DNA from: a virus
Lineage: Duplodnaviria > Heunggongvirae > Uroviricota > Caudoviricetes
Virus record (IMG/VR): IMGVR_UViG_3300030000_000409
Span: 10,284 to 74,283 of that record
Length of the DNA stretch: 64,000 nt
Reading direction: 5' to 3' (one strand)
In this document: piece by piece, positions 7,824 through 58,702 of the stretch
Layout: the number at the start of each line of letters is the position of its first letter
How positions within the stretch are numbered: the first letter of the stretch is position 1
Notes under the pieces: model-generated
Database searches by the model: none
Seen by the model: only the letters and a program-made list of their open reading frames with translations
Told to the model about the DNA's origin: nothing
Program-made: the position numbers and the translations under genes

Positions 7824-7843
7824 TTGATTTTAAATGCCGGTGT

Positions 7844-13155: not shown

Positions 13156-14037
13156 ATGCTTTCATTTAAATCTTTTCTTTTTGAGGGTGGGAATGCTGTT
13201 CAAAAATACAACGTATCAAGAGCAAATCCTGCTGATGTGAAGGCCTGTTTAGAATTTGTATCCAAGCATTTGGGTATACCATATGATGAAATTAAAAATG
13301 ACTTATTAGGTTCAACAGAACTAACATTTCTTGGTAAGAAAAAAGATAGCGGTGATGTTGATATTGCCTTTTCATTAGAACATGTTGATGTGAATGATGT
13401 TAACAAAAAGATGTTAGCTGCTGTAAATGGAGAAGGTACCTATAATGCAGGTACAAAAGTTGGATCTTATGCTGTCCCAGTAAATGGGAAGAAGATTCAG
13501 GTCGATTTAATGTTTGTGTCAAATAAAATTTGGGCTAAATGGATGTACCATTCTTCACAAGGTAATGGATCTGCTTATCCTGGTGTAGTTAGAAACATTT
13601 TACTTTTTACAACACTAGCACATACACAGACCCCTGGTAAAGATTTCGTGTTAAGAGACACTGAAGGTAAACCCGTCATACGTGCATCAAAGTCAATTAA
13701 TATGGATGCTGGTATGAAGAGACTTTTTAAGATGTCAAAAGTAAATTCAAAAACCGGTAAATACAATAAGTCAATTGACACAGTCGAACCATCTGAGATT
13801 GAATCACATTTGAAATCTATAGGAAAAAATATCCCATTTTCAAAGGATAGAGATTTCACTGACAAACCTGATGATGTTGCTAAATTTATTTTTGGAGATT
13901 CTGTTAAAGGAACAGATTTAATGACGGCAGAAAATGTCATTTCTCAGATTAAGAAACTGAAAAATGCAACTGAAATAATAAATGCATCAAAGAAAGAACT
14001 AACACGTCTCAATTTACCAATACCTAAAGAACTATGA
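13156..14037 (+). CDS. Pol-beta-superfamily nucleotidyltransferase-fold protein with CTS-like N-terminus (candidate packaged/injected enzyme)
   Basis: LGSTELTFLGKKKDSGDVDIAFS is the minimal NTase signature hG[GS]x9-13Dh[DE]h. N-terminus MLSFKSFLFE|GG has an L-x-E site. A GTG at 13153 is the alternative start. Confidence 0.45.
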   Translation: MLSFKSFLFEGGNAVQKYNVSRANPADVKACLEFVSKHLGIPYDEIKNDLLGSTELTFLGKKKDSGDVDIAFSLEHVDVNDVNKKMLAAVNGEGTYNAGTKVGSYAVPVNGKKIQVDLMFVSNKIWAKWMYHSSQGNGSAYPGVVRNILLFTTLAHTQTPGKDFVLRDTEGKPVIRASKSINMDAGMKRLFKMSKVNSKTGKYNKSIDTVEPSEIESHLKSIGKNIPFSKDRDFTDKPDDVAKFIFGDSVKGTDLMTAENVISQIKKLKNATEIINASKKELTRLNLPIPKEL

Positions 14038-14951
14038 AACTACATGAACTATTTGAAGGCATCAAAAAAGATGACCAATTCAAAAAAGATTTAGCACTAT
14101 TCATTAACAATTTGAACGCAATGATAAAAGCTAAGAAGCTACTTTTCAGGGGTTTAGATAACATGGGCATCAATATGAAATCCACATCTGTGGAAAATGG
14201 GGATGATTTAATTTGGAAAATTATAAAAGGTCGAGTAGATTCTATTAAGTCAGGAAATCGTGGTCCTAGAGAATCACTAACAGGAATAAATTTAATTTTG
14301 AATGTGACTACAAATTTCCCTTCATGGAGTAAAATACCTAAAAGAAAGTTTAGTACTAGTTGCACCAGTTCTGGATATGATGCTAGTTTTTTCGGTGATG
14401 TATTTGTTATTGTTCCCGCTGACAATGTTAAAAAATTCGCAATGTCAACAGGAGACTTTAATGAGTTGAGGATTAATAGTTCACCAATAATATCTTTAAC
14501 ACCAGCACTAAGTAATATTACTAAAACTTATATCGAAATAAATAATTTAAATATAAAGGAATTAGTTTCCTATGATCAATTTAAGGCTTTTTACAAGTGG
14601 GCTGATGCTAATTTATTAACACCTCCAACAAAACCATCTATTGGAAAAATAAATAAGTCGCATTATTCACTTACTACTGGTGCAGATGCAATATCATTTT
14701 TGAAAAACATGAAATGTTCTTCATTTGAAGAATTCTTTGAAGATAGGTTGTCACCATCAAAATTGGGAATATTAGAGTTTGATTCAATTGATGAACTTTT
14801 AAATAATCCAAAATCATCTAAGTCAAATGAGGTTTGGTTTGAGGGTGATTATTTACTCATCACTTCTGATTTCTTTGATAATTATTCTGGCATGAATCAA
14901 TCTGGTTTAACCACACAATTTTCAAAAATGATAAAACGGGTAATAGGGTAA
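14034..14951 (+). CDS. MKLHELFE-family paralog A (CTS-like N-terminus; possible Alt/Mod-like ADP-ribosyltransferase)
   Basis: N-terminus MKLHELFE, then LLFRGL (aromatic-Arg), PRESLTGINL and FSTSCTSSG (STS-like). Paralogous to the genes at 14955 and 15868. Confidence 0.4.
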   Translation: MKLHELFEGIKKDDQFKKDLALFINNLNAMIKAKKLLFRGLDNMGINMKSTSVENGDDLIWKIIKGRVDSIKSGNRGPRESLTGINLILNVTTNFPSWSKIPKRKFSTSCTSSGYDASFFGDVFVIVPADNVKKFAMSTGDFNELRINSSPIISLTPALSNITKTYIEINNLNIKELVSYDQFKAFYKWADANLLTPPTKPSIGKINKSHYSLTTGADAISFLKNMKCSSFEEFFEDRLSPSKLGILEFDSIDELLNNPKSSKSNEVWFEGDYLLITSDFFDNYSGMNQSGLTTQFSKMIKRVIG

Positions 14952-14954
14952 AAA

Positions 14955-15866
14955 ATGAAACTACATGAATTGTTTGAAGATCAGAATGGTGATCAAGATT
15001 TAATCGACATCTTAAGAAAGCACTGTCCCAATAACTTAAAAGCTATGGCTTCAGGAAGGGCCCCAATGTTGTGGAGGGGTATGAATTGGGATGCTAGTAT
15101 TGAAACTCCTAAATACAAGTGTGACACGGTTAGTACACAGAAAACAAAACGCGAATCGAAAACTGGATCAAATCTGATAATGAGTTTCTTTTCAACAAAC
15201 AAAGACTGGGTTGAATCAACTGTTAATAGATCACTTTCTACTTCCACTTCCTGTTCGTACGATTACGCTTCACAGTTTTCTGGTCCAACATGGTTGGTTA
15301 TTCCATTTGATAATGTCAAACGTTTCAGTTATACATATACGGATTTAAATTTAGTTGATGTAAATGATACCTCGCTTATTGATTTGAATCACCAAATGAA
15401 GGATATTTCTAATGCAATAGAAGGTTTTCGTCATTGGAATTATGATAAGCTAGATAAAGATATTGCTAGAATAGCGCATGCTGATATTTTTGATTATGAT
15501 ATTGGGTCTCACCATTATTCAACTGAAGAAATAAAAGAATTTTCAAATCAGCTTGAAAAAATATTTGTATTGTTAAAGAATACAAAGAAAAGAAAAACAC
15601 TAGCAGTAACAGATGCAGCAACTTTCAAAGATATGGAAGAAGAAATGAATGACTCCTCCATGTATCGTTGGATGTTAAATGAACTCTCTCCATCTGCATT
15701 AGGTATAAAGACATTTAATTCTATAACTCAAATTCCTAATCATGTTAAAAAAGCTGAAGTATGGTTTGATGGGGATTATTTTATTTTTAGCCCAGTAGCA
15801 TCTCAGTTAACAGCATCACAACCTTTTAATATAGAATGGTTCAAAGAAATAATTGCAAAGGTATAA
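14955..15866 (+). CDS. MKLHELFE-family paralog B
   Basis: MKLHELFE...MLWRGM...KRESKTGSNL...LSTSTSCSY, the same motif order as paralog A. Confidence 0.4.
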   Translation: MKLHELFEDQNGDQDLIDILRKHCPNNLKAMASGRAPMLWRGMNWDASIETPKYKCDTVSTQKTKRESKTGSNLIMSFFSTNKDWVESTVNRSLSTSTSCSYDYASQFSGPTWLVIPFDNVKRFSYTYTDLNLVDVNDTSLIDLNHQMKDISNAIEGFRHWNYDKLDKDIARIAHADIFDYDIGSHHYSTEEIKEFSNQLEKIFVLLKNTKKRKTLAVTDAATFKDMEEEMNDSSMYRWMLNELSPSALGIKTFNSITQIPNHVKKAEVWFDGDYFIFSPVASQLTASQPFNIEWFKEIIAKV

Positions 15867-15867
15867 T

Positions 15868-16800
15868 ATGAAGTTGTTTGAACTATTTGAACAGAAGAAT
15901 GATTTAGCATCAGCAATAAAACAACACAGTCCCGATAATTTTAGAGCATTGATATCAGGCAGTGCACCAGCATTATATCGCGGAGTACATAGTAGAGTAT
16001 TAGAAGAAGGAAATTTCAACTACGATATAGTTAAAGAAAGAACTCAACCCAGAGAATCAATGACAAGATCAAATTTATTTTTAGATTTTACATCTGAAAG
16101 TAAAAGTTGGAAATCATTGGGGGTTGACAGAGCATTTTCTACATTCGTTACGGTGAATGTAGAAAATGCTGAAATATTTGGTGATCCATTTTTAATCATT
16201 CCATTTGACAATGTTTCAACTTTTGCATCAACACGTGCAGATTTCAATTTAGTAACATTTGGTAAAAATAAAAATTCTATATCACAGATTTCTAGAACAA
16301 TAGGATTTGTTTGTACTACGGTTATTCAGTTTGGGCAAAAATCAGGTTTCTTCAATAAGGTTTTACCAAAGGATTTTATCAACGTTATTAAAAATGGATT
16401 TATAACAAAATTTAGGAACATTAAACATTTTACACAGGATGACATTAAAAAATTATCTGATTCACTTGGTGCACTTAAATCACTGCCATTTGATTTAGAG
16501 ATTGAAAAGTTAAAATCTAGTGGATCACAAGAGTTAGCCATTATTCATTTAGAAGATCTTCAGAGCCAATTATTTACTTTAGATAAGATGCTATCAGGTA
16601 AATCGTTAAATGATTGGTTACAATTTAACATGTCACCTAAAGCTGTAGGCGTAAAAGTTTTTGAACATTATCAGGATATTATCGTTTCAAAAAATGCTGA
16701 ACTTTGGTTTAGAGGACAGTATATAATGATAAATCATGAATCAATTAAAATTGAAAAGTTATATTCTTCTAAAGAATTTGAAAATCTGATGCAAGTTTAA
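15868..16800 (+). CDS. MKLHELFE-family paralog C
   Basis: MKLFELFE...ALYRGV...PRESMTRSNL...FSTFVTV. ATG at 15868 is preceded by AAGG. Confidence 0.4.
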   Translation: MKLFELFEQKNDLASAIKQHSPDNFRALISGSAPALYRGVHSRVLEEGNFNYDIVKERTQPRESMTRSNLFLDFTSESKSWKSLGVDRAFSTFVTVNVENAEIFGDPFLIIPFDNVSTFASTRADFNLVTFGKNKNSISQISRTIGFVCTTVIQFGQKSGFFNKVLPKDFINVIKNGFITKFRNIKHFTQDDIKKLSDSLGALKSLPFDLEIEKLKSSGSQELAIIHLEDLQSQLFTLDKMLSGKSLNDWLQFNMSPKAVGVKVFEHYQDIIVSKNAELWFRGQYIMINHESIKIEKLYSSKEFENLMQV

Positions 16801-16851: not shown

Positions 16852-17595
16852 ATGCTTGGTTTATCTCTAAGAACACACAATGTTCGAAATCTCTTTATTT
16901 CCATCCTTGAACAAAAACTCTTTACTTCTGTAAATCGAGAAGGGTCAATGACTGACCTGGTTGGTAATACAACAATCGAAATTGTTAATGCATCGTTCAT
17001 TGCAGATGAACCTTCAATCTTCGGTGAAGTCAATTTAGATTATGTCAGACGTGAAGAAGAATGGTATAATTCAATGTCACTTAACGTGAATGATATTCCA
17101 GGTGGAGCTCCAGCAGTCTGGAAAGCAGTGGCTGATGAAAATGGTTTTATCAATTCCAATTACGGTTGGGCTATCTATTCTCCAGATAATGGTTTTGATG
17201 AACTACCTCTCAACGAGAATAATGAATTAAACTCTCAGTACGGTTCCGTAGTAAAAGAACTCCGTAAAAATCCTGAATCACGTCGAGCAATGATGATCTA
17301 CACTCGACCTTCAATGTGGTTAGATTACAACAAGAATGGTCGTTCTGACTTCATGTGTACGAATGCAGTCCAATATCTGATACGTGGTGGCAAAATCCAT
17401 TCAATAGTTCAGATGCGCAGCAATGATGCAGTGTTCGGTTACAAAAATGATTGGGCATGGCAAAAACACGTACTTGACAAATTAGCAAATGATTTAAGTA
17501 TTCCATCTGGGAATATTTTCTGGAATGTTGGAAGTCTTCATGTATATTCAAGACATTACCACCTTGTTGATCCAATTAACTACAGTAGGAAATAA
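16852..17595 (+). CDS. 42: deoxycytidylate (pyrimidine dNMP) hydroxymethylase, T4 gp42-like
   Basis: Near-collinear similarity to T4 gp42 as recalled: TIEIVNASFIADEPSIFG, INSNYGWAIYS, RRAMMIYTRPSM, DFMCTNAVQYLIR, MRSNDAVFGYKNDWAWQKHVLDKL, IFWNVGSLHVYSRHY. Confidence 0.75.
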   Translation: MLGLSLRTHNVRNLFISILEQKLFTSVNREGSMTDLVGNTTIEIVNASFIADEPSIFGEVNLDYVRREEEWYNSMSLNVNDIPGGAPAVWKAVADENGFINSNYGWAIYSPDNGFDELPLNENNELNSQYGSVVKELRKNPESRRAMMIYTRPSMWLDYNKNGRSDFMCTNAVQYLIRGGKIHSIVQMRSNDAVFGYKNDWAWQKHVLDKLANDLSIPSGNIFWNVGSLHVYSRHYHLVDPINYSRK

Positions 17596-20695: not shown

Positions 20696-21199
20696 TTCCA
20701 GATTTCTTTTATACGTGTATGACATATAATAATTTTTTAGGAGAATAATAATGCAAAAATTGAAATATAAACCATCAAAGGGACAGTATCGTCTTTATCT
20801 AACCAATGTTGAAGCTGAACTACTTGCTTTTTTACTACAACACGTTCGTCTCGGTAAAGGCGATGAATACAAAGAAGCAGCCCTGGACCTATGTCAAGCA
20901 TTTCGTGAAACAGATGAATTTGAATTCTCTGAGCTAGAGCATTACATGTCATTGAGCGTGAGTGATACTGAAAGTGAAGGACCAGGAATTACGGTAAGTG
21001 AACTACATCAGAATGAAAATGATCACGGCGATACATGTTGTGGTAAATGTTCAGGTGCTTGCAGTGATCAACATATCAGTATCTCAACACCAGGTGATAT
21101 TGAGTTTGTTACTGGATCACTTTTGACATCATCAGATATCATTGAAGAGATTAGGCGTCGCAAGCGTTTGTTGGAAGAAACTTCACGTCAACAGAATCT

Positions 21200-21781
21200 A
21201 TGATTACAAATTTTTTAATTGAGGGACTAGATAGATTAGGAAAGGATACCCTTATCGATGGATTATTAAATCGATATGGGTATGCTGAAGTCCATCATCG
21301 TAAGAAACCATTATCGCTTTCCTTTTACAACAATTTTGCTACTCCAAATCGTTCAGGTTTACAGCTTTATCAATCTTCGTGTTTCAAACATGACATGCAA
21401 TTATTGAAAGTTTCTGAATTATGTGGTATTAAAAATATCTTCAATCGTGCATGGTTGGGTGAAGCTGTTTATTCAAATCTCTACCGAGGATATGACGGCA
21501 ATTACGTCTTTGAATTGGAAAATGAATGTGATCTTCACAAATTACAATCAACTCGACTGATTCTTTTAATTGAAGATTTTAATACTTCCAAACACTTTGT
21601 TGATGATGGTGACTCATTTGACATTTCTAAACGTGTTGAGGAACAGGACATGTTCGTTAGAGCGTTTGATAAATCATTGATCAAAGATAAACGAATTGTA
21701 TGTGTCACTGATTTTAGGACCGGTCAATTCAAAAGCAAAGAACAAATACTTGAAGAAGTAACAATGGAGATTACCACTTGA
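21200..21781 (+). CDS. 1: deoxynucleoside monophosphate kinase, T4 gp1-like (hm-dCMP/dNMP kinase)
   Basis: IEGLDRLGKDTLIDGL parallels the T4 gp1 P-loop LSGVKRSGKDTTADFI. Start and stop overlap the neighbouring genes, consistent with one operon. Confidence 0.5.
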   Translation: MITNFLIEGLDRLGKDTLIDGLLNRYGYAEVHHRKKPLSLSFYNNFATPNRSGLQLYQSSCFKHDMQLLKVSELCGIKNIFNRAWLGEAVYSNLYRGYDGNYVFELENECDLHKLQSTRLILLIEDFNTSKHFVDDGDSFDISKRVEEQDMFVRAFDKSLIKDKRIVCVTDFRTGQFKSKEQILEEVTMEITT

Positions 21782-22992
21782 AAGTAGCAGTAATTAAATT
21801 GGGGTCCCGCATTTCTTTTAATGCCAATGATACATCCGGGGCAAACGGTGAAGCTCGAAGTATCTGTAAAATGTTGAAGCTTGGTGGAGCCGAAGTTCAT
21901 ATTTACACAAAAATATTGAAGAAAGATAATCTTATCGAAGATTATCATTGGCATTCTTTAAACACTGTAGAAGCATCTAAAGTAAGTGATATTGAAGAAC
22001 GTATTTTTGTTGATAAATATTCAAGCACTTATATTGAACACCGTAAAATTCAATTAGTTGGTGACCTATCTAATATGGATGCATTGGTTGTACTAAATGG
22101 AACAGTTCAATTTTATGGTGGTGAGGAAGATCCAGAACAATTGTTGAATTATTTTATCATCAACAACTTCAAGGGTAAAGTGTTCTACATTTACTGTGAT
22201 CCAGAACTTACATTGAAGCAGGTATGGCCTTCAGTTTCAAAGAAGCCTTGGGCTAGTAACTGGTCACAATCTGATCTTGAGATAACCCGTACAGATATCG
22301 TTTATTTAAGTCAACCACATAATGTTAACCACATTTTAGATGACCTTAAAAAGAACGAAGTTATTCCTCGAGAAATTATTCACTACCCTTTTGAACAGTT
22401 TCCGTGTTTGAATGAACAACTCCCATTCAATCCATCTCCTGAAGTTGATCTATCTTATGGTGGAACAATGCGTGGTGGTAAACGTGAAAAGAAGATGGCA
22501 AGATTTTACTTTGGACATACTTCAGAACTTTCTGTTGAAATGTTCGGTAAGATTAAAGAGGAAGATTTCAACCCTAAAAATATCTTCGGTTTAACAACAC
22601 CAACATTTTCTGGTCCAGTCAAGTACGATGACATGCTTCCTAAAATGAATAAGTCGATGGCACATTGTGTTATCGGTGATCCATATTATGAAAAGATTGA
22701 AGATATGGCACAACGTTGCTATGAATCTATCTGGTCAAATGTTGTGACTTTCATTGACAGTGACATGGATAAGTTACGACGAGTGTATGGTAAAGATAGA
22801 GTTTTGTCTGATTTTCTTTATGTCACAGATCGTCAAGAGCTAGCAGAAAAGATTCTTCTACTCAAGGAAGATAATGATCTAAGAAAACAAATTCTTCAAG
22901 ATCAACTAAAGGCGGTGAACTTCAATCCTGAAAAATACTGTACAGATTTTGTTAACCTTATTAAACTTTTTGCATCACTAAAATATGATTAA
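21778..22992 (+). CDS. bgt: DNA beta-glucosyltransferase (hmC-DNA beta-glucosyltransferase)
   Basis: Collinear with T4 beta-gt as recalled: MKVAVIKLGSRISFN vs MKIAIINMGNNVINF; KVFYIYCDPELTLKQVWPSVSKKPWA vs KIYYLFTDIRLPFSQSWPNVKNRPWA; DLSYGGTMRGGKREKKM vs DVIYGGSFRSGQRESKM; CVIGDPYYE vs LIIGDKNYN. TTG start with GGAG 9 nt upstream. Confidence 0.75.
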   Translation: MKVAVIKLGSRISFNANDTSGANGEARSICKMLKLGGAEVHIYTKILKKDNLIEDYHWHSLNTVEASKVSDIEERIFVDKYSSTYIEHRKIQLVGDLSNMDALVVLNGTVQFYGGEEDPEQLLNYFIINNFKGKVFYIYCDPELTLKQVWPSVSKKPWASNWSQSDLEITRTDIVYLSQPHNVNHILDDLKKNEVIPREIIHYPFEQFPCLNEQLPFNPSPEVDLSYGGTMRGGKREKKMARFYFGHTSELSVEMFGKIKEEDFNPKNIFGLTTPTFSGPVKYDDMLPKMNKSMAHCVIGDPYYEKIEDMAQRCYESIWSNVVTFIDSDMDKLRRVYGKDRVLSDFLYVTDRQELAEKILLLKEDNDLRKQILQDQLKAVNFNPEKYCTDFVNLIKLFASLKYD

Positions 22993-23452
22993 ACTTACAA
23001 TTGGTACTAGAGTTCAAACCTCATTCACTCCTATTGACATGTATGAACTTGTTGTCACAGGTATGAGCGGTGATGGTGATCACTATGAAAAAACTTCTGA
23101 TTATGGTGATCAAGAACAGATAGCTGAATGGATTAATATTCTTAATGCCGTCTCTGGTTTAGGATGGAATGCACGATGTTGTGATGATGACGCGGTTTTT
23201 GCTGCTATTTCAAAGCGTGCTGAAGAATTGGAAACTGACCCCGAAGAAGCGGTAGATTGGTATTCTGATATGGTTGGTAGTGATATCACCTCAAATGACG
23301 GATTACATGCAATGTTTACTGGTGCAGAAGTATTCTGGTATGATCCAGATGGTGAAAAATTTAATGTGAACGTTGAAGGGTTAATCACCCCCGCCTGATT
23401 GAATTTCCCGTAAATACAACGTGCCCGGATTTCGGGAGATAAGGAGAAAAAT

Positions 23453-25312
23453 ATGAAGATAGTTATTTGTTCAGGTGGTACAGGTTCAATTGCATTACAA
23501 ACAGGATTGTACAAAACGTTCCAAGATATTGATGGGGTCGATATCAAAATTTTGATTAATGCATATGACAATGGTAAGTCAACGGGTGATGTTAGACGGG
23601 TTGCTGGAGGTAAAATTCTTGGACCTTCAGATATGCGCAAAAATCAAACCACGCGTTTATCTTTAGAAAATATCAAGTCACCATGGTTAAGCTATCTTGA
23701 TATTCGTTTTACTGAAGAGTCAACTAAAGCTAAACAGTACTGCGAAGAACAGACTGACATTCTTAGAAGTCAAATTACTGATGACATTTCAGAAGTGTAT
23801 GAAGCTATTGACATTTATTTCAAGAAACATTCTGCAGAAAAAATTAACTATACGGATTTTGCTCTAGCTAATATCGTTTATGCAGGCTTATCTATTAAGC
23901 ACAATAATTCACTTCGTATGGCAGGAAGTGTCATGGCTAGATTGATGGGAATTAGTGACAACGTTATTCTCAATGACGACACATCATTGTTTTTAGGAGC
24001 AATCTCTAAGTCAGGTGAACACGTTTCTGATGAAGGTGATATTGTTGCTTGGGGTAAAAAAGATGACCCATTTGTGAATGTCTATTTTACTGATACTGAA
24101 GGATATAGTTTCAAACCAATTTTGTGTGATGAAGCACGAGATGCTTTGATTGATGCTGATCTAATTATTCTTTCTTCTGGAACATTTTGGGCTTCATTGA
24201 TGCCTACTTATGTCAGTATTGGTTTTAAAGAAGCCATGGCACAGACAAAGGCAAAGGTGCTAATGGTTATGAATCGTTTCCCTGATACAGATAGTCCAGG
24301 TCAAACGGGTACGGAAATTATCAATGCACTGGTGCCAAGCATCTTTAAAGAAAAGCAGATTACGATTGTTGCAGACTCGTCTGGTTCTCCACAGATGAAT
24401 GCATTTGAGAAAGATATTTTTAATCTCATTGATAGGTTGTATGTTGACAATTTAATGATGACTGGAGAAACTTCGCCATCTGACATGAAGAAACATAATC
24501 CTATTAAGCTAGCACGACTTGTTGGTGTTGCTTATTTCGGTGATGCTTTAACATCATCTCATTTTATGTTTGATTATGATGACACGTTAGTTGGTAGAGG
24601 TAATAAATTGCCTAAATCATCTAGAGTCAATATTGTTGAACTTAACAGATTGAATTCAAAATTAAAGAACAGTTTATCAATATGCACTGGGAACAGTATC
24701 AAGGCAATCGATTTAAATATTGGTGAATGGCATGTTGATCTTATTAGAAGTATAAATATTTTTGCAGATGGTGGAGTAAATAATTACACTTATCTAGAAG
24801 ATACATCAAGCACCGATGACAATAATAGAAAGATAACATTTAATGGATGTGTAAACGATTCATACATTATTCCAGAAGAAGTTATTAATCAATTGGTTTG
24901 GCGTTTAAGAGATGCTGGAATTCAATTCTACAAAATTGAAATCCGCGGCGGTGTTATGATTTCTATTAAGCCTATTGAACAGGAATATAGAAAACCAATT
25001 CTGACATTAGTCAAGATGATCTTAGCAGAATTTGTGAACATCGAATTGGTAGCTAAATTATCTGGTAGGACCACTATTGAAATAGCTCATAAAGATATTT
25101 CAAAAGCTGATGCACTTAGAAGCATTCTTCAACAACCCAATGTTACAAGTATCACATATGTGGGAGATGAATTGCTAAGTGGTAATGATTCACCCATCGC
25201 AATGTTAGCTCAACAGGATAGTAGAATTAAAACTCTAAATGTATCATCTCCTTCTCAGACAGCATTTTTCCTAAAAACGCTGTCACGTGGAAAGTCATCA
25301 TACTCTTTATAA
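23453..25312 (+). CDS. CofD/YvcK(UPF0052)-family transferase fused to a C-terminal HAD-superfamily phosphatase domain
   Basis: N-terminal MKIVICSGGTGSIALQTGL...INAYDNGKSTGDVRR...GPSDMRKN matches CofD/YvcK motifs (SGGTGT.KLL.GL; DDGGSSG.LR; PGD.RN). C-terminal FMFDYDDTLV (HAD motif I, DxDxT) and YVGDELLSGND (motif IV). Strong AAGGAG RBS. Confidence 0.6.
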   Translation: MKIVICSGGTGSIALQTGLYKTFQDIDGVDIKILINAYDNGKSTGDVRRVAGGKILGPSDMRKNQTTRLSLENIKSPWLSYLDIRFTEESTKAKQYCEEQTDILRSQITDDISEVYEAIDIYFKKHSAEKINYTDFALANIVYAGLSIKHNNSLRMAGSVMARLMGISDNVILNDDTSLFLGAISKSGEHVSDEGDIVAWGKKDDPFVNVYFTDTEGYSFKPILCDEARDALIDADLIILSSGTFWASLMPTYVSIGFKEAMAQTKAKVLMVMNRFPDTDSPGQTGTEIINALVPSIFKEKQITIVADSSGSPQMNAFEKDIFNLIDRLYVDNLMMTGETSPSDMKKHNPIKLARLVGVAYFGDALTSSHFMFDYDDTLVGRGNKLPKSSRVNIVELNRLNSKLKNSLSICTGNSIKAIDLNIGEWHVDLIRSINIFADGGVNNYTYLEDTSSTDDNNRKITFNGCVNDSYIIPEEVINQLVWRLRDAGIQFYKIEIRGGVMISIKPIEQEYRKPILTLVKMILAEFVNIELVAKLSGRTTIEIAHKDISKADALRSILQQPNVTSITYVGDELLSGNDSPIAMLAQQDSRIKTLNVSSPSQTAFFLKTLSRGKSSYSL

Positions 25313-25324
25313 GGATAATCAAAA

Positions 25325-26107
25325 ATGGCAACTGATATAACAGCCGATCTTTACATTATTGCAGCAGGTAAAGGAACACGCATGGGTAATAAGTTGCCAA
25401 AAGCACTTATCCCATTCAATGGAGAACCATGTTTAACACACACACTTAAAAACATAGGACAACATTTCAGAAATGTTTTTGTTGTTATAAATGAAGATAT
25501 TCAAGATGTGTGGGATAGATACAAGTCAGAAATTTCACTTAGTAGTCACCCATTCTCAATGAATGTTCAGTTTATTCCTATCAAATCTGGTTTGGGAGAT
25601 GGACATGCTACCTTAATGGCTCTTGAAAAAGCGCCCGCTATAGCAACATTATCTCCAGAAATAGTAGTATGTTGGGGTGATGTTTATTTTCATCAACCAG
25701 AAATAATTACTGAACTTCTTAGCATGAAGATGTCTTCTAATGGAATAGTTCCAGCTCTACTTGAACAAAATCCGTATGTTACTTTGTTGGTTGATGATAC
25801 TCTAAACTGTATGTCAGCGGATTTCTCAAAATACGGTGAGCAACACCCAAGTGGTTTTCATGATCAATCAGTCTTCAGACTGAAGTATGATGTGACTGTT
25901 GCTGCTCTTTCAAGACTTCATAAAGCATTTTGGAAAAATGGAAGATATGCAACCCCTGGTGGCGAGCTTTCACTGTTGTATATTTTCCATTACTTGTACA
26001 ATCTAGAATGCCCAGTAACAGTATATGAAACTAGTCACTCGACAAAATCTTTTAACACTGACACAGAAGTCAAATTAATACGCGAGGAAATTTTAAATGA
26101 CAAATAG
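25325..26107 (+). CDS. sugar-phosphate/NDP-X nucleotidyltransferase (GlmU/MobA/IspD/CofC-like NTP_transferase fold)
   Basis: LYIIAAGKGTRMGNKLPKALIPF is the canonical NTP-transferase N-terminal motif (h.AAG.GTRM....PK.L). Confidence 0.6.
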   Translation: MATDITADLYIIAAGKGTRMGNKLPKALIPFNGEPCLTHTLKNIGQHFRNVFVVINEDIQDVWDRYKSEISLSSHPFSMNVQFIPIKSGLGDGHATLMALEKAPAIATLSPEIVVCWGDVYFHQPEIITELLSMKMSSNGIVPALLEQNPYVTLLVDDTLNCMSADFSKYGEQHPSGFHDQSVFRLKYDVTVAALSRLHKAFWKNGRYATPGGELSLLYIFHYLYNLECPVTVYETSHSTKSFNTDTEVKLIREEILNDK

Positions 26108-26759
26108 ACAACAGCCCATTCTAATCACATTGACAGCCCCATCTTGTGGAGGTAAAAGTTATCTTCTTAACTACATACGTGACATTGCAAAAATGCCATG
26201 TTTGATCTCAACCACTACAAGACCTCCTCGAGCAAATGAAGTTGAAGGAGTTGATTATTATTTCATCACCGAAGAACAGTCTATTCAGTTAGCAGTTATG
26301 GATCAATTTGCTGAATTAGCAATCTATAACGGTGTTCGATATGGGGTGACACGTAAAGAACTTAAAGAAAAACTTTCATCTGGTTATGCATTCCTGATTA
26401 TCGAACCAGGTGGTCTCGAAGGGTACGTTCAATCTGCTATTGATATGGGTGCGAAGCATCTTAAGTACTACATCCATACTGATCCAGAAACACGCATTGA
26501 AAGATTCTATGATCGCGTGAACAAAGACGTTACAAAATTATTCGGAAAAACTCTTGATCGTGAATATACGAAACTCGATTTAGAAAGTGATACTAAGGAA
26601 ATAATTCATGCATCACTGACAAGGTTCAGAAATATGCTAACAACGGAAATGACATGGGGCAGTGATTACCAATGGGACAGAATACTATTTGGTACAACAT
26701 TTCCAGAAGAAAATTTACAAATCATTCAAAATGATATTAGGGAATTGATTAAAAGCTGA
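26097..26759 (+). CDS. guanylate-kinase-like P-loop kinase
   Basis: P-loop LTAPSCGGKSYLLNYI and STTTRPPRANEVEGVDYYFITEEQ match GMP-kinase motifs (GPSG.GKSTL; TTR.PR.GE..G.DY.FV), plus IYNGVRYGVT. Start overlaps the upstream stop. Confidence 0.6.
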   Translation: MTNRQQPILITLTAPSCGGKSYLLNYIRDIAKMPCLISTTTRPPRANEVEGVDYYFITEEQSIQLAVMDQFAELAIYNGVRYGVTRKELKEKLSSGYAFLIIEPGGLEGYVQSAIDMGAKHLKYYIHTDPETRIERFYDRVNKDVTKLFGKTLDREYTKLDLESDTKEIIHASLTRFRNMLTTEMTWGSDYQWDRILFGTTFPEENLQIIQNDIRELIKS

Positions 26760-26807
26760 CAGTCTATTAAATAAATAAATCATCAAATAACACATAAAGG
26801 ATAACAC

Positions 26808-27236
26808 ATGACAAATACTACTCCCTCTTTCTGGCCAGCTGATATTGAAGATATGCACACTAAATTCGGTGTGAATAAAGTTGTTGCTACTCTCGATAAA
26901 GAACAACTCAAAACATATTTGAAGTTTCGTCTTGACATGGTCCAAGAAGAAGTAACTGAAGCAATGAGTGCATTCGCATCTGGAGATGCAGATGGTGTCG
27001 TTGATGCTTTGATTGACAATATCGTTTTTGCTATTGGTACATTGGATGTTTTCGGAATTGATCCATATGCTGCTTGGAATGAAGTCCATTCAAAGAATAT
27101 GGAAAAATCACCAGGTGTAAAAGCTGGTCGTCCAAATCCATACGGATTCCCTGACCTTATTAAGCCACCGTCATGGCAGGCGCCGGTTCATTTAGATAAT
27201 CTAGGGTTGTTATCTAAAGTATTCCCACAGGAGTAA
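26808..27236 (+). CDS. MazG/HisE-like all-alpha NTP pyrophosphohydrolase (possible dCTPase, a gp56 functional analogue)
   Basis: LKFRLDMVQEEVTEAMSA...DADGVVDALIDNIVFAIGT...WNEVHSKNMEK fits the EE..E/D..DA.D/EVH.SNM.K pattern of phage MazG-like dNTP pyrophosphatases. Confidence 0.5.
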   Translation: MTNTTPSFWPADIEDMHTKFGVNKVVATLDKEQLKTYLKFRLDMVQEEVTEAMSAFASGDADGVVDALIDNIVFAIGTLDVFGIDPYAAWNEVHSKNMEKSPGVKAGRPNPYGFPDLIKPPSWQAPVHLDNLGLLSKVFPQE

Positions 27237-27399: not shown

Positions 27400-29367
27400 A
27401 TGAAACTACTAGCATTTGCAAATGCACAACATGAACTGAAAGAAGCTTCAGTCAAATCTGAGAATGTCCATCTTGCAATGGACAAAATGATTAAATTCAT
27501 TCAAAAGAAACTTGATGTGAAATTATTAAAGGTACCAGGTGTAGAACATTTTAACAATTCCAGCGACCACGGTTATGGAGTACGTTACATTTTCTCTGGT
27601 TCAACAAAATGTTTAAGATTTAATTGGGCATCTGATGGTCAAGCTGGAAAGTCAAATGAAATTGTGTCAGTTGATATTTTCAATGGAAAAACTTCACACC
27701 CAAATTTCAATGTACATTGTAAAGGAATTTCCTTTGTAAGAGCCCTGCCTGTTATTATTGACATAATTGGTTCACCTTCTTTAGGAAAAGTAACTGCTTT
27801 CCCTGTTAATCCAACTGAAGCAATTTCAGAATCTTTTCTGATTGAAGTCGCACGTGATGCTTTTACTGCTGAACGTGCACTAACTGACTTCCTAAAAAGA
27901 TTAGGAGCAGGTAACGCATTGACGAGATCAGATTTTATCGGATCATATCACATTGTTAATGTTGGTATTTTCGATACCATCATGCGCGATTTCAAAGATT
28001 CTTTTAGTATCTCAGGCAAACGCGTATCAATAAAAGTAGGTTCAAATTTGGGTGATCTGAAAGAATCAATCCTTTCAAAGTCGGGATCTGTAATTGTAAC
28101 CGCTGGTGGTACAGATGAAAATTATTTGAAGACTCCTCAAGAAGATGAACTTGCTGAGGAAGAAGGAAGTGACCACGTTCCATATAGTGATGCATTAGAA
28201 CATCTTGAAGGTCTAGTTACTGGTACTATCAAGGGAGCATTCAATGCTTTGTTTGTTGCTGGTAAAGGTGGATGTTTTTCAGGTGACACAAAGATCAACA
28301 TTGTTGTGAATGATTTAGTTCATACTGTTACGTTTTTTGAAATTGAACAAAGGGTAAAACAGTCATATGGTTTAGCTAGCCTTTTGTTGAATGAGTTTTA
28401 TAAGATGGATGACGTAAAAGTTGAGACTCCAACCGGTTATTTGGACGTTTTGAGCTTTGTTAAGAAATCTGGTACAAAAGCTGTTGTGACTTTTCAATCT
28501 GGAATAGTTCATGAATGTCTTTCCAACCATCTTTATATCAATACCTCCGGTCATGCTGTTGCTGTCTATAATTTATATCCTGGTTCTCCAATAAGAATGA
28601 GGGATGGTACGTTAGATTTTATTAAATCAGTTGCGTTGACTGATGAACCAATGTTAGCATTCGATTTATCTGTTAGCGGTATCGATAGCATTTATGTTAC
28701 GACTGATGGTATTCAATCTCACAACACTGGTAAAACAACCATTGTTGAAAAGGTTTTACATTCACATGGATTGACAGATGGAAACGGTTATTACAAAAAT
28801 ACTGGTTCAGCGTCCGCAATCGGGATTTATCAATCTCTTTACAAAAATAGAAACAGCATTATTCTATTCGATGATTGTGATGGAGCACTATCTGATACAG
28901 ATGCACGCAATCTTATTAAAGCAGCAACTGACACAAAGAAGAATAGAAAAATCGTATGGAATAAAAGAACATCTGGTAGCTATGACCCAAATGACATGAA
29001 TGCTGCTTTGTATGCTGAAGATCCAGATAGATTTCCTACACACTTTGAATTTACTGGTCGTGTTATTTTTATTTCTAACTTACCACTTTCAAAATTGGAT
29101 CCAGATGGTGCTATTAGAACACGTGCCTTCGTGATTAACATCAACCCAACTGATGATGAAATGTACGAACACATGGAAAAAATTCTTCATAACATCCGTC
29201 TTGAAGAAGGTCTTTCTCTATCAAAAGACGAAAGAGAAAACGTGTTTAAGGTTGTCAAAACATCCAAGCGTAAGGGTGATGTATCAATTAGAAAATTGGT
29301 TAGAGCTTTAAATCTAGCAGCAACACACGCACCAGGTTGGGAAAAACTTGTGGACCTGTACGCCTGA
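27400..29367 (+). CDS. SF3/AAA-like P-loop NTPase (655 aa precursor) interrupted by a mini-intein in its Walker A loop
   Basis: After intein removal the Walker A reads VAGKGG|TGKTTIVEKV (GxxGxGKT). Walker B RNSIILFDDCDGAL and motif C-like VIFISNLP. Paralogous to 36796..37764. Confidence 0.65.
   Translation: MKLLAFANAQHELKEASVKSENVHLAMDKMIKFIQKKLDVKLLKVPGVEHFNNSSDHGYGVRYIFSGSTKCLRFNWASDGQAGKSNEIVSVDIFNGKTSHPNFNVHCKGISFVRALPVIIDIIGSPSLGKVTAFPVNPTEAISESFLIEVARDAFTAERALTDFLKRLGAGNALTRSDFIGSYHIVNVGIFDTIMRDFKDSFSISGKRVSIKVGSNLGDLKESILSKSGSVIVTAGGTDENYLKTPQEDELAEEEGSDHVPYSDALEHLEGLVTGTIKGAFNALFVAGKGGCFSGDTKINIVVNDLVHTVTFFEIEQRVKQSYGLASLLLNEFYKMDDVKVETPTGYLDVLSFVKKSGTKAVVTFQSGIVHECLSNHLYINTSGHAVAVYNLYPGSPIRMRDGTLDFIKSVALTDEPMLAFDLSVSGIDSIYVTTDGIQSHNTGKTTIVEKVLHSHGLTDGNGYYKNTGSASAIGIYQSLYKNRNSIILFDDCDGALSDTDARNLIKAATDTKKNRKIVWNKRTSGSYDPNDMNAALYAEDPDRFPTHFEFTGRVIFISNLPLSKLDPDGAIRTRAFVININPTDDEMYEHMEKILHNIRLEEGLSLSKDERENVFKVVKTSKRKGDVSIRKLVRALNLAATHAPGWEKLVDLYA
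28273..28725 (+). mobile_element. mini-intein (151 aa, no endonuclease domain) inserted in the P-loop
   Basis: Begins CFSGDTKI (block A C-x-x-D-T-x-I) and ends ...TDGIQSHN, followed by the +1 Thr. Excising it restores a perfect Walker A, GKGGTGKTT. The intein-free paralog reads GEGGLGKTF at the same position. Confidence 0.7.
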
Positions 29368-29424: not shown

Positions 29425-30279
29425 ATGTCTGAAAATAGAAGAGCATCCCAAAGAACATATCACATTATCTATAGAACTACATGTGATATTACGGGTAAAT
29501 GGTATATTGGGATGCACAGCACTGATAAACTTGATGATGGATATTTAGGTTCCGGAATGCACTTATGGAGATCAATTGATAAGTATGGTAAAGATCACCA
29601 TAGAGTTGAAATAATAGAATATCTTTCTGATAGAAAATCTTTATCAGAAAGAGAAAGAGAACTTCTAAAAGAAGCAAAAAAAGATCCACTATGTATGAAT
29701 ATTGCTTGGGGAGGTGAAGGATATTATGATCGTCCTCCTACAACCGAAGAAACTGCTGCTAAACTTTCTAAAGCATCTAAGAATTATGTTCGTACAAAAG
29801 AATGGTATGAAAAAGCTGTTGCTACTAGAATGGCAAATGACGGTTATAATGTTACAAGTGAGACAAAAGAAAAGATTAGAACTGCTCTTACTGGAAAAAC
29901 TCTTACAGAAGAACATAAGCAAAAAATTTCTATTGGTGGTACTGGACAAAAGAGAACAGAAGAAACTTGTAAGAATATTTCCAAAGCTCTTAAGGGAAAA
30001 AAGTTCAAATCTGGATTGGATAGAAAACCAGTATCTAAAGAAACACGAGAAAACACAAGTAAAATTCGTATGGGGCAAAAGCTAACAGAAGAGCAACGTC
30101 AACAGCGGGCATTGAATAAATTGAAACGTATTGAGCTCGGTATTCAAAAAGCAAATGTGCGTCCAACTAAAAAGTGTACGGTTGATGGTATCAAAATTTA
30201 TGCATCTGTTAGAGAGATGGTGAAGGAACTTGGCTCAGGTAAAAATGGAACACATTCTCCTTCATTTAGATTTATTTAG
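29425..30279 (+). CDS. GIY-YIG homing endonuclease (Seg-like) with NUMOD3-type DNA-binding repeats
   Basis: YHIIYRTTCDITGKWYIGMHST...GYLGSG is a GIY-YIG core. Downstream are repeated ..TEE.K.KIS.ALKGK.. modules (NUMOD3-like). Confidence 0.7.
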   Translation: MSENRRASQRTYHIIYRTTCDITGKWYIGMHSTDKLDDGYLGSGMHLWRSIDKYGKDHHRVEIIEYLSDRKSLSERERELLKEAKKDPLCMNIAWGGEGYYDRPPTTEETAAKLSKASKNYVRTKEWYEKAVATRMANDGYNVTSETKEKIRTALTGKTLTEEHKQKISIGGTGQKRTEETCKNISKALKGKKFKSGLDRKPVSKETRENTSKIRMGQKLTEEQRQQRALNKLKRIELGIQKANVRPTKKCTVDGIKIYASVREMVKELGSGKNGTHSPSFRFI

Positions 30280-58654: not shown

Positions 58655-58674
58655 TTTACCACCGTGTCATCTCC

Positions 58675-58682: not shown

Positions 58683-58702
58683 AACTTAAAGGAGATGACA
58701 AT

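Follow-up and report, generated by a model that had tools for sequence, protein, structure and literature searches.

What would an enzyme of the CofD/YvcK family do among the genes by which a phage makes and glucosylates 5-hydroxymethylcytosine (hmC)? We present here an analysis of the gene run at positions 20751-27236 of a 64,000-nucleotide stretch of phage DNA (the window), in which an earlier note had seen a candidate pathway of DNA hypermodification. The observation itself was confirmed and its interpretation was supported in part: the linkage to hmC and beta-glucosyltransferase (Bgt) genes and the likeness to CofC/CofD stood, while the roles given to the guanylate kinase and to the phosphatase did not. 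The best reading of the locus is a cassette for DNA hypermodification in an uncultured jumbo phage, whose DNA would then probably carry a sugar decoration not known before. Our literature search returned no paper in which a CofD/YvcK enzyme is connected with the modification of phage DNA, in agreement with a remark made earlier.

Gene run and hmC synthesis

According to the ORF list of the window, the run consists of eight genes (Table 1), all co-oriented on the plus strand, with neighbours overlapping by 4, 4, 8 and 11 nt and the remaining gaps of 12-54 nt. This tight packing makes translational coupling, as proposed before, probable.

Table 1. Features of the cassette and related genes in the window
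Feature	Position	Strand	Basis or remark
gp42-type dCMP hydroxymethylase	16852..17595	+	PDB 1b49 match
150-aa protein, no family	20751..21203	+	accompanies dNMP kinase
Thymidylate-kinase-like dNMP kinase, 193 aa	21200..21781	+	phrog_761
T4 beta-glucosyltransferase-like GT-B DNA glycosyltransferase, 404 aa	21778..22992	+	PF09198, PDB 1bgt
137-aa protein, no assigned role	22985..23398	+	poorly conserved
CofD-HAD fusion, 619 aa	23453..25312	+	CofD + HAD-IIB domains
CofD/YvcK-fold domain, aa 1 to ~360 of fusion	23453..24532	+	PF01933
HAD-IIB domain, aa ~366-619 of fusion	24548..25312	+	Hydrolase_3 / HAD-SF-IIB
Putative sugar-1-phosphate nucleotidylyltransferase (NDP-sugar pyrophosphorylase; NTPt), 260 aa	25325..26107	+	NTP_transf_3, AF2 model
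Guanylate kinase, 220 aa	26097..26759	+	PF00625, phrog_1815
MazG-like NTP pyrophosphohydrolase, 142 aa	26808..27236	+	PF01503, phrog_671
Canonical ThyA, separate gene	57734-58651

The hydroxymethylase recognized earlier upstream of the run is indeed a close homologue of T4 gp42 (PDB 1b49, T4 dCMP hydroxymethylase, E = 6.7e-75). It has the catalytic Cys, and Asp at the positions of ThyA D169 and N177 (MRSNDAVFGYKND), and judging by its residues it is of the dCMP type; it differs from 5-hydroxy-dCMP synthases, whose signature is D169N (PMC13326640). Its predicted role is to supply 5-hydroxymethyl-dCMP and thus the acceptor hydroxyl. All homologues found of this thymidylate-synthase-like (TS-like) protein share its catalytic Cys and the Asp that specifies dCMP. 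The 404-aa product was correctly named a beta-glucosyltransferase: it matches T4-Gluco-transf (PF09198, Pfam, 1.2e-17) and PDB 1bgt (7.5e-35), and the T4 catalytic/UDP-binding set of D100, R191, R195, R269 and E272 is conserved in it. The E22 equivalent is conserved as well, in an alignment whose T4 reference sequence matches the PDB alignment over residues 55-332.

The 193-aa kinase, previously called gp1-like, is not demonstrably so; it is thymidylate-kinase-like, with the P-loop EGLDRLGKDT, a match only to phrog_761 'thymidylate kinase' (PHROG, 1.7e-6) and no sequence match in PDB, and its substrate is presumably hmdCMP/dTMP. Its gene adjoins the Bgt-like gene in most related loci. The 150-aa protein, which gave no family match in Pfam/PHROG domain searches, has homologues in the loci L004, L037 and L040, there too upstream of the kinase, and in contigs devoid of the CofD-HAD and NTPt genes small proteins at its position carry a motif similar by eye, in unaligned sequences; it goes with the dNMP kinase, not with that gene pair. 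The 137-aa protein (a homologue in L004 only, 57% identity, and one faint PHROG match) is probably outside the core.

The guanylate-kinase-like protein (PF00625, 1.5e-12; phrog_1815, 1e-27) keeps its name but loses the non-canonical substrate that had been suggested for it. Its P-loop and GMP-binding motif TTRPPRANEVEGVDYYF align with those of guanylate kinases, and the gene still lies beside Bgt in five sister contigs without CofD-HAD and NTPt; therefore it does not appear to be a pathway-specific kinase. It probably serves ordinary nucleotide metabolism, outside the sugar module, and in several loci with the pair it is missing from the sequence that was retrieved. The MazG-like NTPase, identified as such before, was recovered with PF01503 (PRA-PH, 5.3e-10), phrog_671 (7.5e-21) and weak PDB matches to MazG-like DR2231. 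Conserved in the closer clade only, it may by analogy be a dCTPase, the functional counterpart of T4 gp56.

CofD-HAD protein and NTPt

The CofD/YvcK-HAD fusion described in the earlier note has both domains. The CofD domain (PF01933, Pfam, 3.1e-17, aa 3-298 of 619) is a true CofD/YvcK fold and not an unrelated Rossmann protein, and its sequence resembles YvcK-type proteins more than CofD proper. Across very distant members 34 residues, mostly polar, are invariant. The second domain (Hydrolase_3 / HAD-SF-IIB match, aa 371-582) does not resemble the generic, terminal phosphatase envisaged at first: below E = 0.001 its profile matches only HAD-type phosphomannomutases (PMM) and alpha-phosphoglucomutase (alpha-PGM), and it keeps residues aligned with PMM2 R123 and R141 as well as the GxxT/S and K motifs. 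Among HAD-IIB proteins, it looks most like the PMM/alpha-PGM type.

The NTPt (NTP_transf_3, Pfam, 1e-13) has a GlmU-like motif, AAGKGTRMGNKLPKAL. Its AF2 model (pLDDT 87) matches GlmU, UGPase, RmlA, MurU and HddC over the full length with query-normalised TM of ~0.7, which points to the full sugar-1-phosphate nucleotidylyltransferase fold. Thus, of the former description as GlmU/MobA/CofC-type, the nucleotidyltransferase identity and the likeness to GlmU hold, and the MobA-type does not, as those enzymes have a small architecture.

Distribution in phages and bacteria

Synteny was followed in 25 IMG/VR phage loci with a CofD-HAD protein, a few duplicate contigs among them. The T4 Bgt-like gene lies directly upstream in 24 of the 25 and NTPt directly downstream in 23, and a dCMP-type thymidylate-synthase homologue is nearby in 20, so the expected linkage to hmC synthesis and bgt was found. 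The order Bgt-like/CofD-HAD/NTPt persists to ~30% protein identity and recurs in Ralstonia jumbo phage RsoM2USA and the uncultured 462-kb phage LR756500; the arrangement is kept far above chance level. The pair (CofD-HAD and NTPt) is present in 29/34 Bgt-like loci. The five sister contigs that lack it retain the TS-like gene, kinase, Bgt and guanylate kinase, and the pair is therefore an optional extra layer. Two Bgt positions near the E22 equivalent, S20 and G21, do not vary among 19 phages that carry the pair and are different in the five pair-less ones, where the second is Val, as in T4. This may hint at altered donor specificity, though weakly, because the pair-less set may be one lineage.

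The CofD-like gene and NTPt occur together also in bacterial Wzx/GT2/GT8 polysaccharide loci, and those of Steroidobacteraceae are 46-53% identical to the phage proteins. In nearly every phage or bacterial locus examined NTPt adjoins the CofD-like gene, and the two are fused in P0347, P0348 and P0353, a pattern that mirrors CofC/CofD. Direct fusions of the CofD-like domain with GT2 glycosyltransferases occur in SAR86, Bryobacterales and P0380. None of the neighbours scanned in the first two is a HAD gene, and the 34 invariant residues are unchanged there; the CofD-like activity would therefore be independent of HAD and, given the GT2 fusions, physically tied to the glycosyltransferase step. 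The partner glycosyltransferases of the bacterial pair differ in family (GT2, GT8, GT1) with no universal orthologue, as would suit a module for decoration or supply better than a single, dedicated pairing of glycosyltransferase and donor. In neither phage nor bacterial loci is there an isomerase, epimerase or dehydratase that regularly goes with the pair, and the sugar would therefore come straight from a central hexose phosphate. We infer that bacterial surface-polysaccharide loci were the source from which the phage took the two-gene module. The homologues in these bacterial loci, which come in part under what the earlier note had considered adverse to its proposal, do not replace the phage linkage to hmC.

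Candidate pathway and alternatives

In the pathway we favour, the gp42-type enzyme, dNMP kinase, guanylate kinase and MazG-like NTPase would lead to hydroxymethyl-dCTP and so to 5-hmC in DNA, and the Bgt-like GT-B enzyme would add a sugar to the hydroxymethyl group; both steps are well supported. The module recruited from bacteria would, as inferred from fold and sequence, make NDP-hexose: the PMM-like HAD-IIB domain would convert hexose-6-phosphate to hexose-1-phosphate, and the GlmU/RmlA-like NTPt this to NDP-hexose. By CofD-type chemistry, the CofD/YvcK-fold domain would then use NDP-hexose, the hydroxyl of the Bgt-installed sugar attacking the sugar-proximal phosphate and NMP leaving, to give a phosphodiester-linked hexose-1-phosphate on glucosyl-hmC. 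If a sugar is first added and then decorated, a physical tie of the CofD-like domain to a glycosyltransferase, as in the GT2 fusions, is what one would expect. That the module acts in the hmC DNA pathway is very probable, and production of an NDP-sugar by HAD and NTPt is rather probable. Phospho-sugar transfer by the CofD-like domain after the glycosyltransferase, the least certain step, is proposed tentatively, and the whole scheme that includes it has somewhat less than an even chance. To our knowledge, the sole established chemistry of the CofD family (CofD/FbiA) is the transfer of phospho-X from NDP-X, and YvcK/GlmR binds UDP-sugars (PMC7525490, PMC10128056); both points were counted in favour of the scheme. 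Counted against it were that we know of no sugar-1-phosphate transfer by any CofD/YvcK-family protein, and that the best-studied YvcK homologue is described as a UDP-GlcNAc-binding regulator or accessory uridyltransferase.

The main alternative, which we regard as unlikely, is that the pair only makes an unusual NDP-sugar for the Bgt-like enzyme, leaving one non-glucose sugar on hmC. The CofD-like domain would then act before NTPt, e.g. as an anomeric phosphotransferase giving a sugar bisphosphate that HAD trims to sugar-1-phosphate, in the order kinase, HAD, NTP-transferase of the heptose and UDP-arabinofuranose routes. Published heptosyl-hmC phage cassettes have the same architecture, with a HAD-APH bifunctional enzyme, a cytidylyltransferase and a T4-betaGT-like glycosyltransferase all needed (bioRxiv 10.1101/2023.12.21.572611), and AfhE/AfhF, whose route to UDP-arabinofuranose passes through a bisphosphate and employs a HAD phosphatase, provide a precedent (PMC13326640). 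A bisphosphate substrate would likewise be compatible with the cap arginines of PMM type, and the PMM-like HAD could equally be a sugar-bisphosphate phosphatase with the CofD-like domain as bisphosphate maker. The identity between bacterial and phage pairs, despite unrelated partner glycosyltransferases, is simpler if both handle soluble substrates only, and the S20/G21 co-variation weakly suggests a changed donor; all these points but the fit of the arginines were counted against phospho-sugar transfer as well. On the other hand, phosphorylation of a sugar is not known for any member of the CofD family, the relay would be broken in the HAD-less SAR86/Bryobacterales loci, where the CofD-like active-site residues are nevertheless unchanged, and no sugar-modifying enzyme goes consistently with the pair. 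Hosts usually already make NDP forms of central hexose phosphates.

It is quite improbable that the product is ordinary glucosyl-hmC from the phage's own UDP-glucose, with HAD as phosphoglucomutase, a GalU-like NTPt, the YvcK-like domain as UDP-sugar sensor and host galU/pgm dispensable. The intact T4 UDP-binding and catalytic residues checked in Bgt, the resemblance of HAD to alpha-PGM and PMM and of NTPt to UGPase and GlmU, and the regulator YvcK/GlmR, which binds UDP-GlcNAc (PMC7525490), would agree with it, and a ~340 kb genome with every cytosine glucosylated would need much UDP-glucose. Yet 34 invariant, mostly polar residues and GT2 fusions would be less usual in a sensor than in a catalytic domain, bacterial polysaccharide loci need no special UDP-glucose cassette, and sister phages manage without the pair. 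The scheme of the earlier note, in which the guanylate-kinase-like enzyme phosphorylates a non-nucleotide X, NTPt makes NDP-X (non-sugar, as for CofC), the CofD-like domain places phospho-X on hmC or glucose and HAD dephosphorylates, draws on the CofC/CofD-like pairing with its occasional fusion, the true CofD fold and the single co-oriented run. It is very unlikely given the canonical GMP-binding motif, the distribution of the guanylate kinase in pair-less and pair-carrying phages, the large fold of NTPt and the PMM-like HAD. Least likely of all is a non-DNA target, i.e. a host or phage glycan, altered for instance for superinfection exclusion or in virion-protein glycosylation, with the hmC neighbourhood incidental. 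All bacterial homologues do lie in surface-polysaccharide loci, and jumbo phages are reported to carry glycan-synthesis clusters (PMC7824862). However, the window ORFs scanned (Pfam, E <= 1e-4) include no lipid-carrier, flippase or other glycosyltransferase gene, and the place of the pair between the Bgt-like and nucleotide-metabolism genes is kept across clades to ~30% identity.

Gene organization of the cassette and synthesis of the modified base

The cassette (20751-27236, plus strand) consists of eight tightly packed ORFs; four neighbour pairs overlap by 4, 4, 8 and 11 nt, and the remaining intergenic gaps are 12-54 nt long. ORF calls and family searches thus bear out the co-oriented, compact gene run described in the earlier note. 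Scanning for promoters and terminators gave no signal above the shuffled expectation. The window also encodes T4-type topoisomerase II subunits and a tail-fibre-like protein, and Pfam additionally detected DHFR and two NUDIX proteins.

No nucleotide-level relatives were obtained when the region was compared by megablast with the phage collection, and relatives were found at the protein level only. For the 619-aa protein joining a CofD-like domain to a HAD-IIB domain (CofD-HAD, or the fusion), these are the Ralstonia jumbo phage RsoM2USA (344 kb; gp1, 38% identity), the uncultured 462-kb phage LR756500 and many metagenomic contigs of 290-370 kb. Copies 100% identical to the nucleotidyltransferase encoded next to it (NTPt; together, the pair) occur on JGI, ENA and Logan metagenome contigs. 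The source of the window is an uncultured jumbo phage.

Features of the window, with strand and supporting match where available
Feature	Coordinates	Strand	Basis
NodU/CmcH/TobZ-family carbamoyltransferase, C-terminal part, cut by left edge	2-475		Carbam_trans_C, E = 9.8e-61
Non-specific DNA/RNA endonuclease (cargo)	2325-3059	-	
Ro60/TROVE-vWA RNA-binding protein (cargo)	4202-5812		
Three tandem paralogues (305, 303, 315 aa)	14034-16800		
T4 gp42 close homologue	16852-17595		PDB 1b49, E = 6.7e-75
dNMP kinase, thymidylate-kinase-like, 193 aa	21200-21781	+	family searches
T4 beta-glucosyltransferase homologue (Bgt-like)	21778-22992	+	PF09198, 1.2e-17
CofD-HAD, 619 aa: N-terminal CofD-family, C-terminal HAD-IIB	23453-25312	+	PF01933, 3.1e-17
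NTPt, NTP_transf_3/IspD/GlmU-like nucleotidyltransferase	25325-26107	+	family searches
Guanylate-kinase-like protein	26097-26759	+	family searches
MazG-like NTPase	26808-27236	+	family searches
P-loop protein, 655 aa	27400-29367		
GIY-YIG-type homing-endonuclease-like gene	29425-30279		
R2K-clade ATP-grasp protein (cargo)	38798-39577		
Circularly permuted YpsA SLOG-family protein, adjoins ThyA (cargo)	57168-57698		
Canonical thymidylate synthase (ThyA), separate gene	57734-58651		
GIY-YIG-type homing-endonuclease-like gene	58664-59497		

The gp42-type protein, with motifs FMCTN and MRSNDAVFGYKND, keeps the catalytic Cys and has Asp at the positions of both D169 and N177 of E. coli ThyA. It agrees with T4 gp42 dCMP hydroxymethylase in close homology, in the Cys and in the Asp at the N177 position, and these residues identify dCMP as the substrate. 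The catalytic Cys and both Asp residues are kept in all thymidylate-synthase-like (TS-like) proteins found across the related loci. Synthesis of 5-hydroxymethylcytosine (hmC) by the gp42-type route is shown by homology, and since a canonical thymidylate synthase is encoded separately, the phage DNA almost certainly contains 5-hmC. A 5-hydroxy-dCMP synthase, recognized by Lee et al. 2026 by its D169N signature (PMC13326640), was also considered for this gene and ruled out, because D169 is retained.

The Bgt-like protein scored 64.5 bits against PF09198 (cutoff 27) and aligned to 1bgt with 7.5e-35; the T4 catalytic base D100 and the UDP-binding residues R191, R195, R269 and E272 are all conserved, and they are invariant in 14 relatives. 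E22 of T4 is also kept, as judged from an alignment to a T4 sequence of which residues 55-332 agree with the PDB alignment. Homology thus shows the protein to be a Bgt-type DNA glycosyltransferase, and in related loci its genes co-locate with gp42-type genes. The window protein carries at about aa 72-98 a private insertion of ~27 aa, absent from 13 relatives and T4 Bgt.

For the 193-aa kinase the sole family match was the PHROG 'thymidylate kinase', and a PDB sequence search of a set presumably including the T4 gp1 structure gave no match at E <= 1, so the 'gp1-like' label used in the earlier note had to be abandoned. The guanylate-kinase-like protein scored 48 bits against PF00625 (cutoff 25.2) and possesses a P-loop; its TTRPPRANEVEGVDYYF aligns with guanylate kinases, with the GMP-binding motif TTRxPRxxExxGxDYxF. 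Its C-terminal half is diverged and the NCBIfam equivalog score was 66 against 160. The gene had been suggested to encode a kinase of the modification pathway, which is contradicted by the preserved GMP-binding motif and by its presence in sister contigs devoid of the pair.

With the T4 hmC pathway the window shares homologues of gp42 and Bgt, and an NTP pyrophosphatase and dNMP kinases placed in one gene run. It differs in the thymidylate-kinase-like rather than gp1-like kinase and in the MazG-like NTPase. T4 uses UDP-glucose of the host and encodes neither a mutase nor a nucleotidyltransferase nor a CofD-like enzyme.

The CofD-HAD fusion and its nucleotidyltransferase partner

The N-terminal domain has the CofD fold and matches PF01933 above the gathering score, which confirms the CofD/YvcK-family assignment made earlier from the sequence. 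No CofD equivalog was obtained from NCBIfam, whose two matches, CofD_related/YvcK and 'GAK system CofD-like', scored far under their cutoffs. Against TIGR01826 (YvcK) the domain scored 62 bits, below the cutoff of 196 for that family, and its nearest PDB relatives are still of the YvcK type; the motifs GGGTG, DxGxSTG and PxDxR[KN] are common to the domain and YvcK/GlmR. A search of the BFVD viral structures retrieved a phage HAD but nothing of the CofD-like kind. Three Staphylococcus and Listeria records of the phage collection (OR849923.1, OR844990.1, OR847622.1) gave weak matches of 25-27% identity to the CofD-like half only, and these look like host yvcK-type genes within the records and not a phage cassette.

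Obligate pairing of a CofD-family protein with a nucleotidyltransferase is shared with F420 biosynthesis, in which CofC/CofD (FbiD/FbiA) pair an NTP-transferase with a 2-phospho-L-lactate / enolpyruvyl-phosphate transferase. In contrast to that system, the phage domain is nearer the YvcK type by sequence and is fused to a phosphomannomutase (PMM)-like HAD, its partner NTPt has a fold of sugar-1-phosphate nucleotidylyltransferases, the surrounding genes are those for Bgt and nucleotide metabolism in phages and for polysaccharides in bacteria, and the deazaflavin Fo cannot be the acceptor. No F420 genes were found among the window ORFs scanned with Pfam or the gene neighbours inspected. Genes for cell-wall regulation, which accompany yvcK, are not part of the CofD-HAD context, and unlike YvcK/GlmR of Firmicutes (UPF0052) the phage and bacterial CofD-like proteins are fused to HAD, GT2 or NTPt. 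GlmR is described as a GlmS regulator and accessory uridyltransferase, and YvcK/GlmR proteins bind UDP-sugars (PMC7525490, PMC10128056).

The C-terminal domain has HAD-IIB catalytic motifs I-IV (DxDxT, S/T, K, GDxxxND), all invariant, and a C2B cap. It matched phosphomannomutase 6i5x (14.4, 22% identity), trehalose-6-phosphate phosphatase 6upb (14.1) and the atypical alpha-phosphoglucomutase 4bnd (13.8). A profile built on the HAD domain alone reached at E < 0.001 only PMM/alpha-phosphoglucomutase (alpha-PGM)-type entries of the PDB (7myv, 3.6e-10; 4bnd, 6.3e-9; PMM2, 1.5e-7), with phosphatases appearing only at E > 0.04, which lends no support to the terminal phosphatase assumed in the earlier note. 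Residues aligned to R123 and R141 of PMM2 are invariant and the GxxT/S...K motif is conserved; the equivalent of R134, one of three phosphate-binding arginines of PMM, is missing. Against Pfam the isolated domain matched Hydrolase_3 only, PMM not being reached for the window protein, and one relative scored 19.8 bits against PMM (cutoff 22.4). PMM and alpha-PGM are the nearest enzymes, and the domain's sequence would fit a mutase and a bisphosphate phosphatase alike.

The NTPt model (pLDDT 87) matched over its full length the GlmU N-domain, UGPase, RmlA, MurU and HddC, with Foldseek E = 6.5e-16 to 1e-11 and query-normalised TM of 0.66-0.77 to GlmU, UGPase and RmlA. The N-terminus reads AAGKGTRMGNKLPKAL, as in GlmU, and the GxGTRxxxxxPK signature is present. 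The modelled structure accordingly has the sugar-1-phosphate nucleotidylyltransferase fold of the GlmU N-domain, RmlA and GalU type. Taken together, the PMM/alpha-PGM-type and GlmU/UGPase/RmlA matches recall ManB/ManC-like logic, from which the window differs in the Pfam PMM result and the absent R134 equivalent, the mutase role being putative.

Distribution of the pair in phages and bacteria

The association of the fusion with Bgt and gene 42 types, raised before from the window alone, was borne out in the IMG/VR loci (n = 25, some being duplicate contigs): a Bgt-like gene lies directly upstream of CofD-HAD in 24/25, NTPt directly downstream in 23/25, and a TS-like gene within 10 kb in 20/25. 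The Bgt-like, CofD-HAD, NTPt arrangement is maintained down to ~30% fusion identity, and in RsoM2USA and LR756500 the cassette genes are present as in the IMG/VR loci. A reverse search from Bgt-like proteins yielded 34 loci, with the pair present in 29. The IMG/VR contigs L074, L076, L081, L082 and L083 (150-336 kb) had no CofD-HAD or NTPt within 8-kb flanks and keep the TS-like, helicase, dNMP kinase, Bgt-like and guanylate-kinase-like genes. Since these five contigs combine Bgt-like and guanylate kinase genes without the pair, the pair forms an optional module that has been inserted between the genes for Bgt and guanylate kinase, the latter being independent of it. In L004, the closest related contig, a SIR2-family gene (7519-8217) absent from the window is located between the dNMP kinase and Bgt-like genes.

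Among species-representative bacterial genomes the fusion was found in MAGs of Lachnospiraceae, Oscillospiraceae, Erysipelotrichaceae, Bacteroidales, Acidiphilium, Steroidobacteraceae, SAR86 and Bryobacterales, and an NTPt homologue adjoins it in almost every bacterial locus. Searched with a profile at E <= 1e-30, 1.84 billion cluster representatives gave at least 324 fusion clusters at the 50% identity level; full-length fusions of 550-680 aa make up most of the matches listed. GT2, GT8, Wzx-type flippases, acyltransferases and epimerases predominated among 106 neighbouring bacterial proteins surveyed with Pfam; the loci concerned are of the surface-polysaccharide kind. No universal cognate glycosyltransferase was found beside the bacterial pair, the best cluster occurring in 7/19 loci. 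One Steroidobacteraceae contig encodes a pair sharing 46% and 53% identity with the window proteins, and the gene that comes next specifies a GT1 EryCIII-like glycosyltransferase. Identity of the pair with the CDP-2-glycerol genes gtp1-3 of S. pneumoniae (through Gtp3) was considered and dropped, as Bentley et al. contains no family information and a term search was empty.

Several architectures were noticed: GT2 - CofD-like in SAR86, CofD-like - GT2 in Bryobacterales, GT2 - CofD-like - HAD in protein P0380 and CofD-like - NTP_transf_3 in P0347, P0348 and P0353. Bacterial fusions of the CofD-like domain with GT2 or the nucleotidyltransferase include, besides these four P-numbered proteins, those at 7044-9236 of L026 and 4889-6955 of L029, and some fusions are without the HAD domain. 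In the SAR86 and Bryobacterales loci NTPt is adjacent and there was no HAD gene among the neighbours scanned; 34 invariant residues are common to their HAD-less CofD-like domains and those of phages. Therefore the constant unit is NTPt plus the CofD-like domain, physically tied to a glycosyltransferase, HAD being an accessory found in one large subfamily.

Possible reaction of the pair and accompanying genes

According to the scheme that we favour, drawn from folds and conserved residues, the PMM-like HAD domain would convert hexose-6-phosphate to hexose-1-phosphate, or trim a bisphosphate to the 1-phosphate, NTPt would make NDP-hexose from it, and the CofD-like domain would move hexose-1-phosphate from NDP-hexose onto a hydroxyl group of the sugar that the glycosyltransferase had put in place. 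Glucosyl-hmC would thereby acquire a hexose in phosphodiester linkage, and the mass calculated from elemental formulae for such a nucleoside is ~661.17 Da. To our knowledge, transfer of phospho-X from NDP-X is the only reaction type established in the CofD family, and we favour it for this reason and because YvcK/GlmR relatives bind UDP-sugars, the CofD-like domain is always next or fused to an enzyme making NDP-X, it is found fused to GT2 and persists without HAD, and sister phages keep Bgt and dispense with the pair. In its broad form the proposal makes the YvcK/CofD-fold domain a new class of sugar-1-phosphate (phosphoglycosyl) transferase, giving phosphodiester-linked hexose on glucosyl-hmC in jumbo phages and sugar-phosphate side groups on bacterial surface polysaccharides; we put it forward tentatively, judging it somewhat more doubtful than probable.

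The main competing explanation limits the cassette to supplying Bgt with an unusual NDP-sugar, in which case the CofD-like domain would be a phosphotransferase acting at an earlier step. Such a layout, with a bifunctional HAD fusion, a nucleotidyltransferase and a T4-betaGT-like enzyme beside a modified-base gene, is known from the published HAD-APH and cytidylyltransferase cassette for heptosyl-hmC ('contig 53'; bioRxiv 10.1101/2023.12.21.572611) and from a second phage cassette, AfhE/AfhF, which together with arabinose-5-phosphate isomerase provides UDP-arabinofuranose for 5-hydroxycytosine. The window differs from both: the HAD is PMM-type, its partner is CofD/YvcK-like instead of an APH-type or other kinase, and the base comes from a gp42-type enzyme and not from methyltransferase plus TET or a 5-hydroxy-dCMP synthase. 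Donor supply is also consistent with the high similarity of phage and bacterial pair proteins despite their unrelated partner glycosyltransferases. Bgt residues S20 and G21, beside the E22 equivalent, covary with the pair: S-G is invariant in 19 pair-carrying phages and replaced by A/S-V in 5 pair-less ones (T-V in T4), which is weak evidence because the five may be a single lineage. In a duller form of this explanation, the cassette may serve for self-supply of UDP-glucose and the YvcK-like domain may be regulatory.

A phosphate-linked sugar on a hypermodified base, as predicted by the phosphoglycosyl transfer that we favour, is found in DNA of Bacillus phage SP-15, where dihydroxypentyluracil carries glucose and phosphodiester-linked glucuronate; the base there is a uracil derivative. 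We know of no other classical precedent for a sugar joined via phosphate to a hypermodified phage base. Bacillus phages of our phage collection, which may not include SP-15, had no CofD-HAD homologue.

Glycosylation of phage hmC with a dedicated, phage-encoded nucleotide-sugar supply is already established. New is the core enzyme family, the CofD/YvcK-fold and PMM-like HAD fusion having no assigned function anywhere, and possibly also the linkage chemistry. The literature searched contained no report tying CofD/YvcK proteins to phage DNA modification, in agreement with the earlier note, and nothing relevant on them in a polysaccharide context. Both jumbo phages and bacterial polysaccharide loci, among them those of gut Firmicutes and SAR86, carry the fusion. 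If true, the proposal would mean DNA hypermodification of a chemical type so far assigned to no enzyme, and the YvcK-like branch would for the first time have a clear catalytic function. Solving the cassette would explain the DNA modification of widespread uncultured jumbo phages related to RsoM2USA, provide an enzyme for new DNA or glycan decorations and help to clarify what YvcK/GlmR-type proteins do biochemically, which has long been debated. It can be tested, as one cultured phage (RsoM2USA) carries the cassette and an E. coli hmC reconstitution platform is published. The RsoM2USA paper lists gp2 as beta-glucosyltransferase and gp1 without assigned function, and reports no DNA-modification data.

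Sugar hydroxyls are O-carbamoylated by carbamoyltransferases of the NodU/CmcH/TobZ family, so that a role of the enzyme at the left edge of the window in decorating the sugar on the DNA is conceivable; its gene is ~20 kb away from the cassette, and none of the loci retrieved encodes a homologue. The three tandem paralogues just upstream of the gp42-type gene are each 26-28% identical to one L004 gene (912-1838) and represent a local triplication of a gene without known function.

The P-loop protein contains a 150-aa insertion (aa 293-442, ~28276-28725), absent in the L004, L033, L038 and L048 homologues, whose first residue is Cys (GKGG|CFSGDT) and whose last two are His-Asn, with Thr as the next residue (SHN|TGKTT). 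It resembles a mini-intein that interrupts the Walker A motif; Pfam detected no intein domain in this protein. Homologues in L040-L042 have a ~1.1 kb insertion at the identical site. One GIY-YIG-type gene directly follows the putative intein-bearing gene and the other directly follows the canonical thymidylate synthase; one of the two has NUMOD3 repeats and the other a weak SegE_GIY-YIG match.
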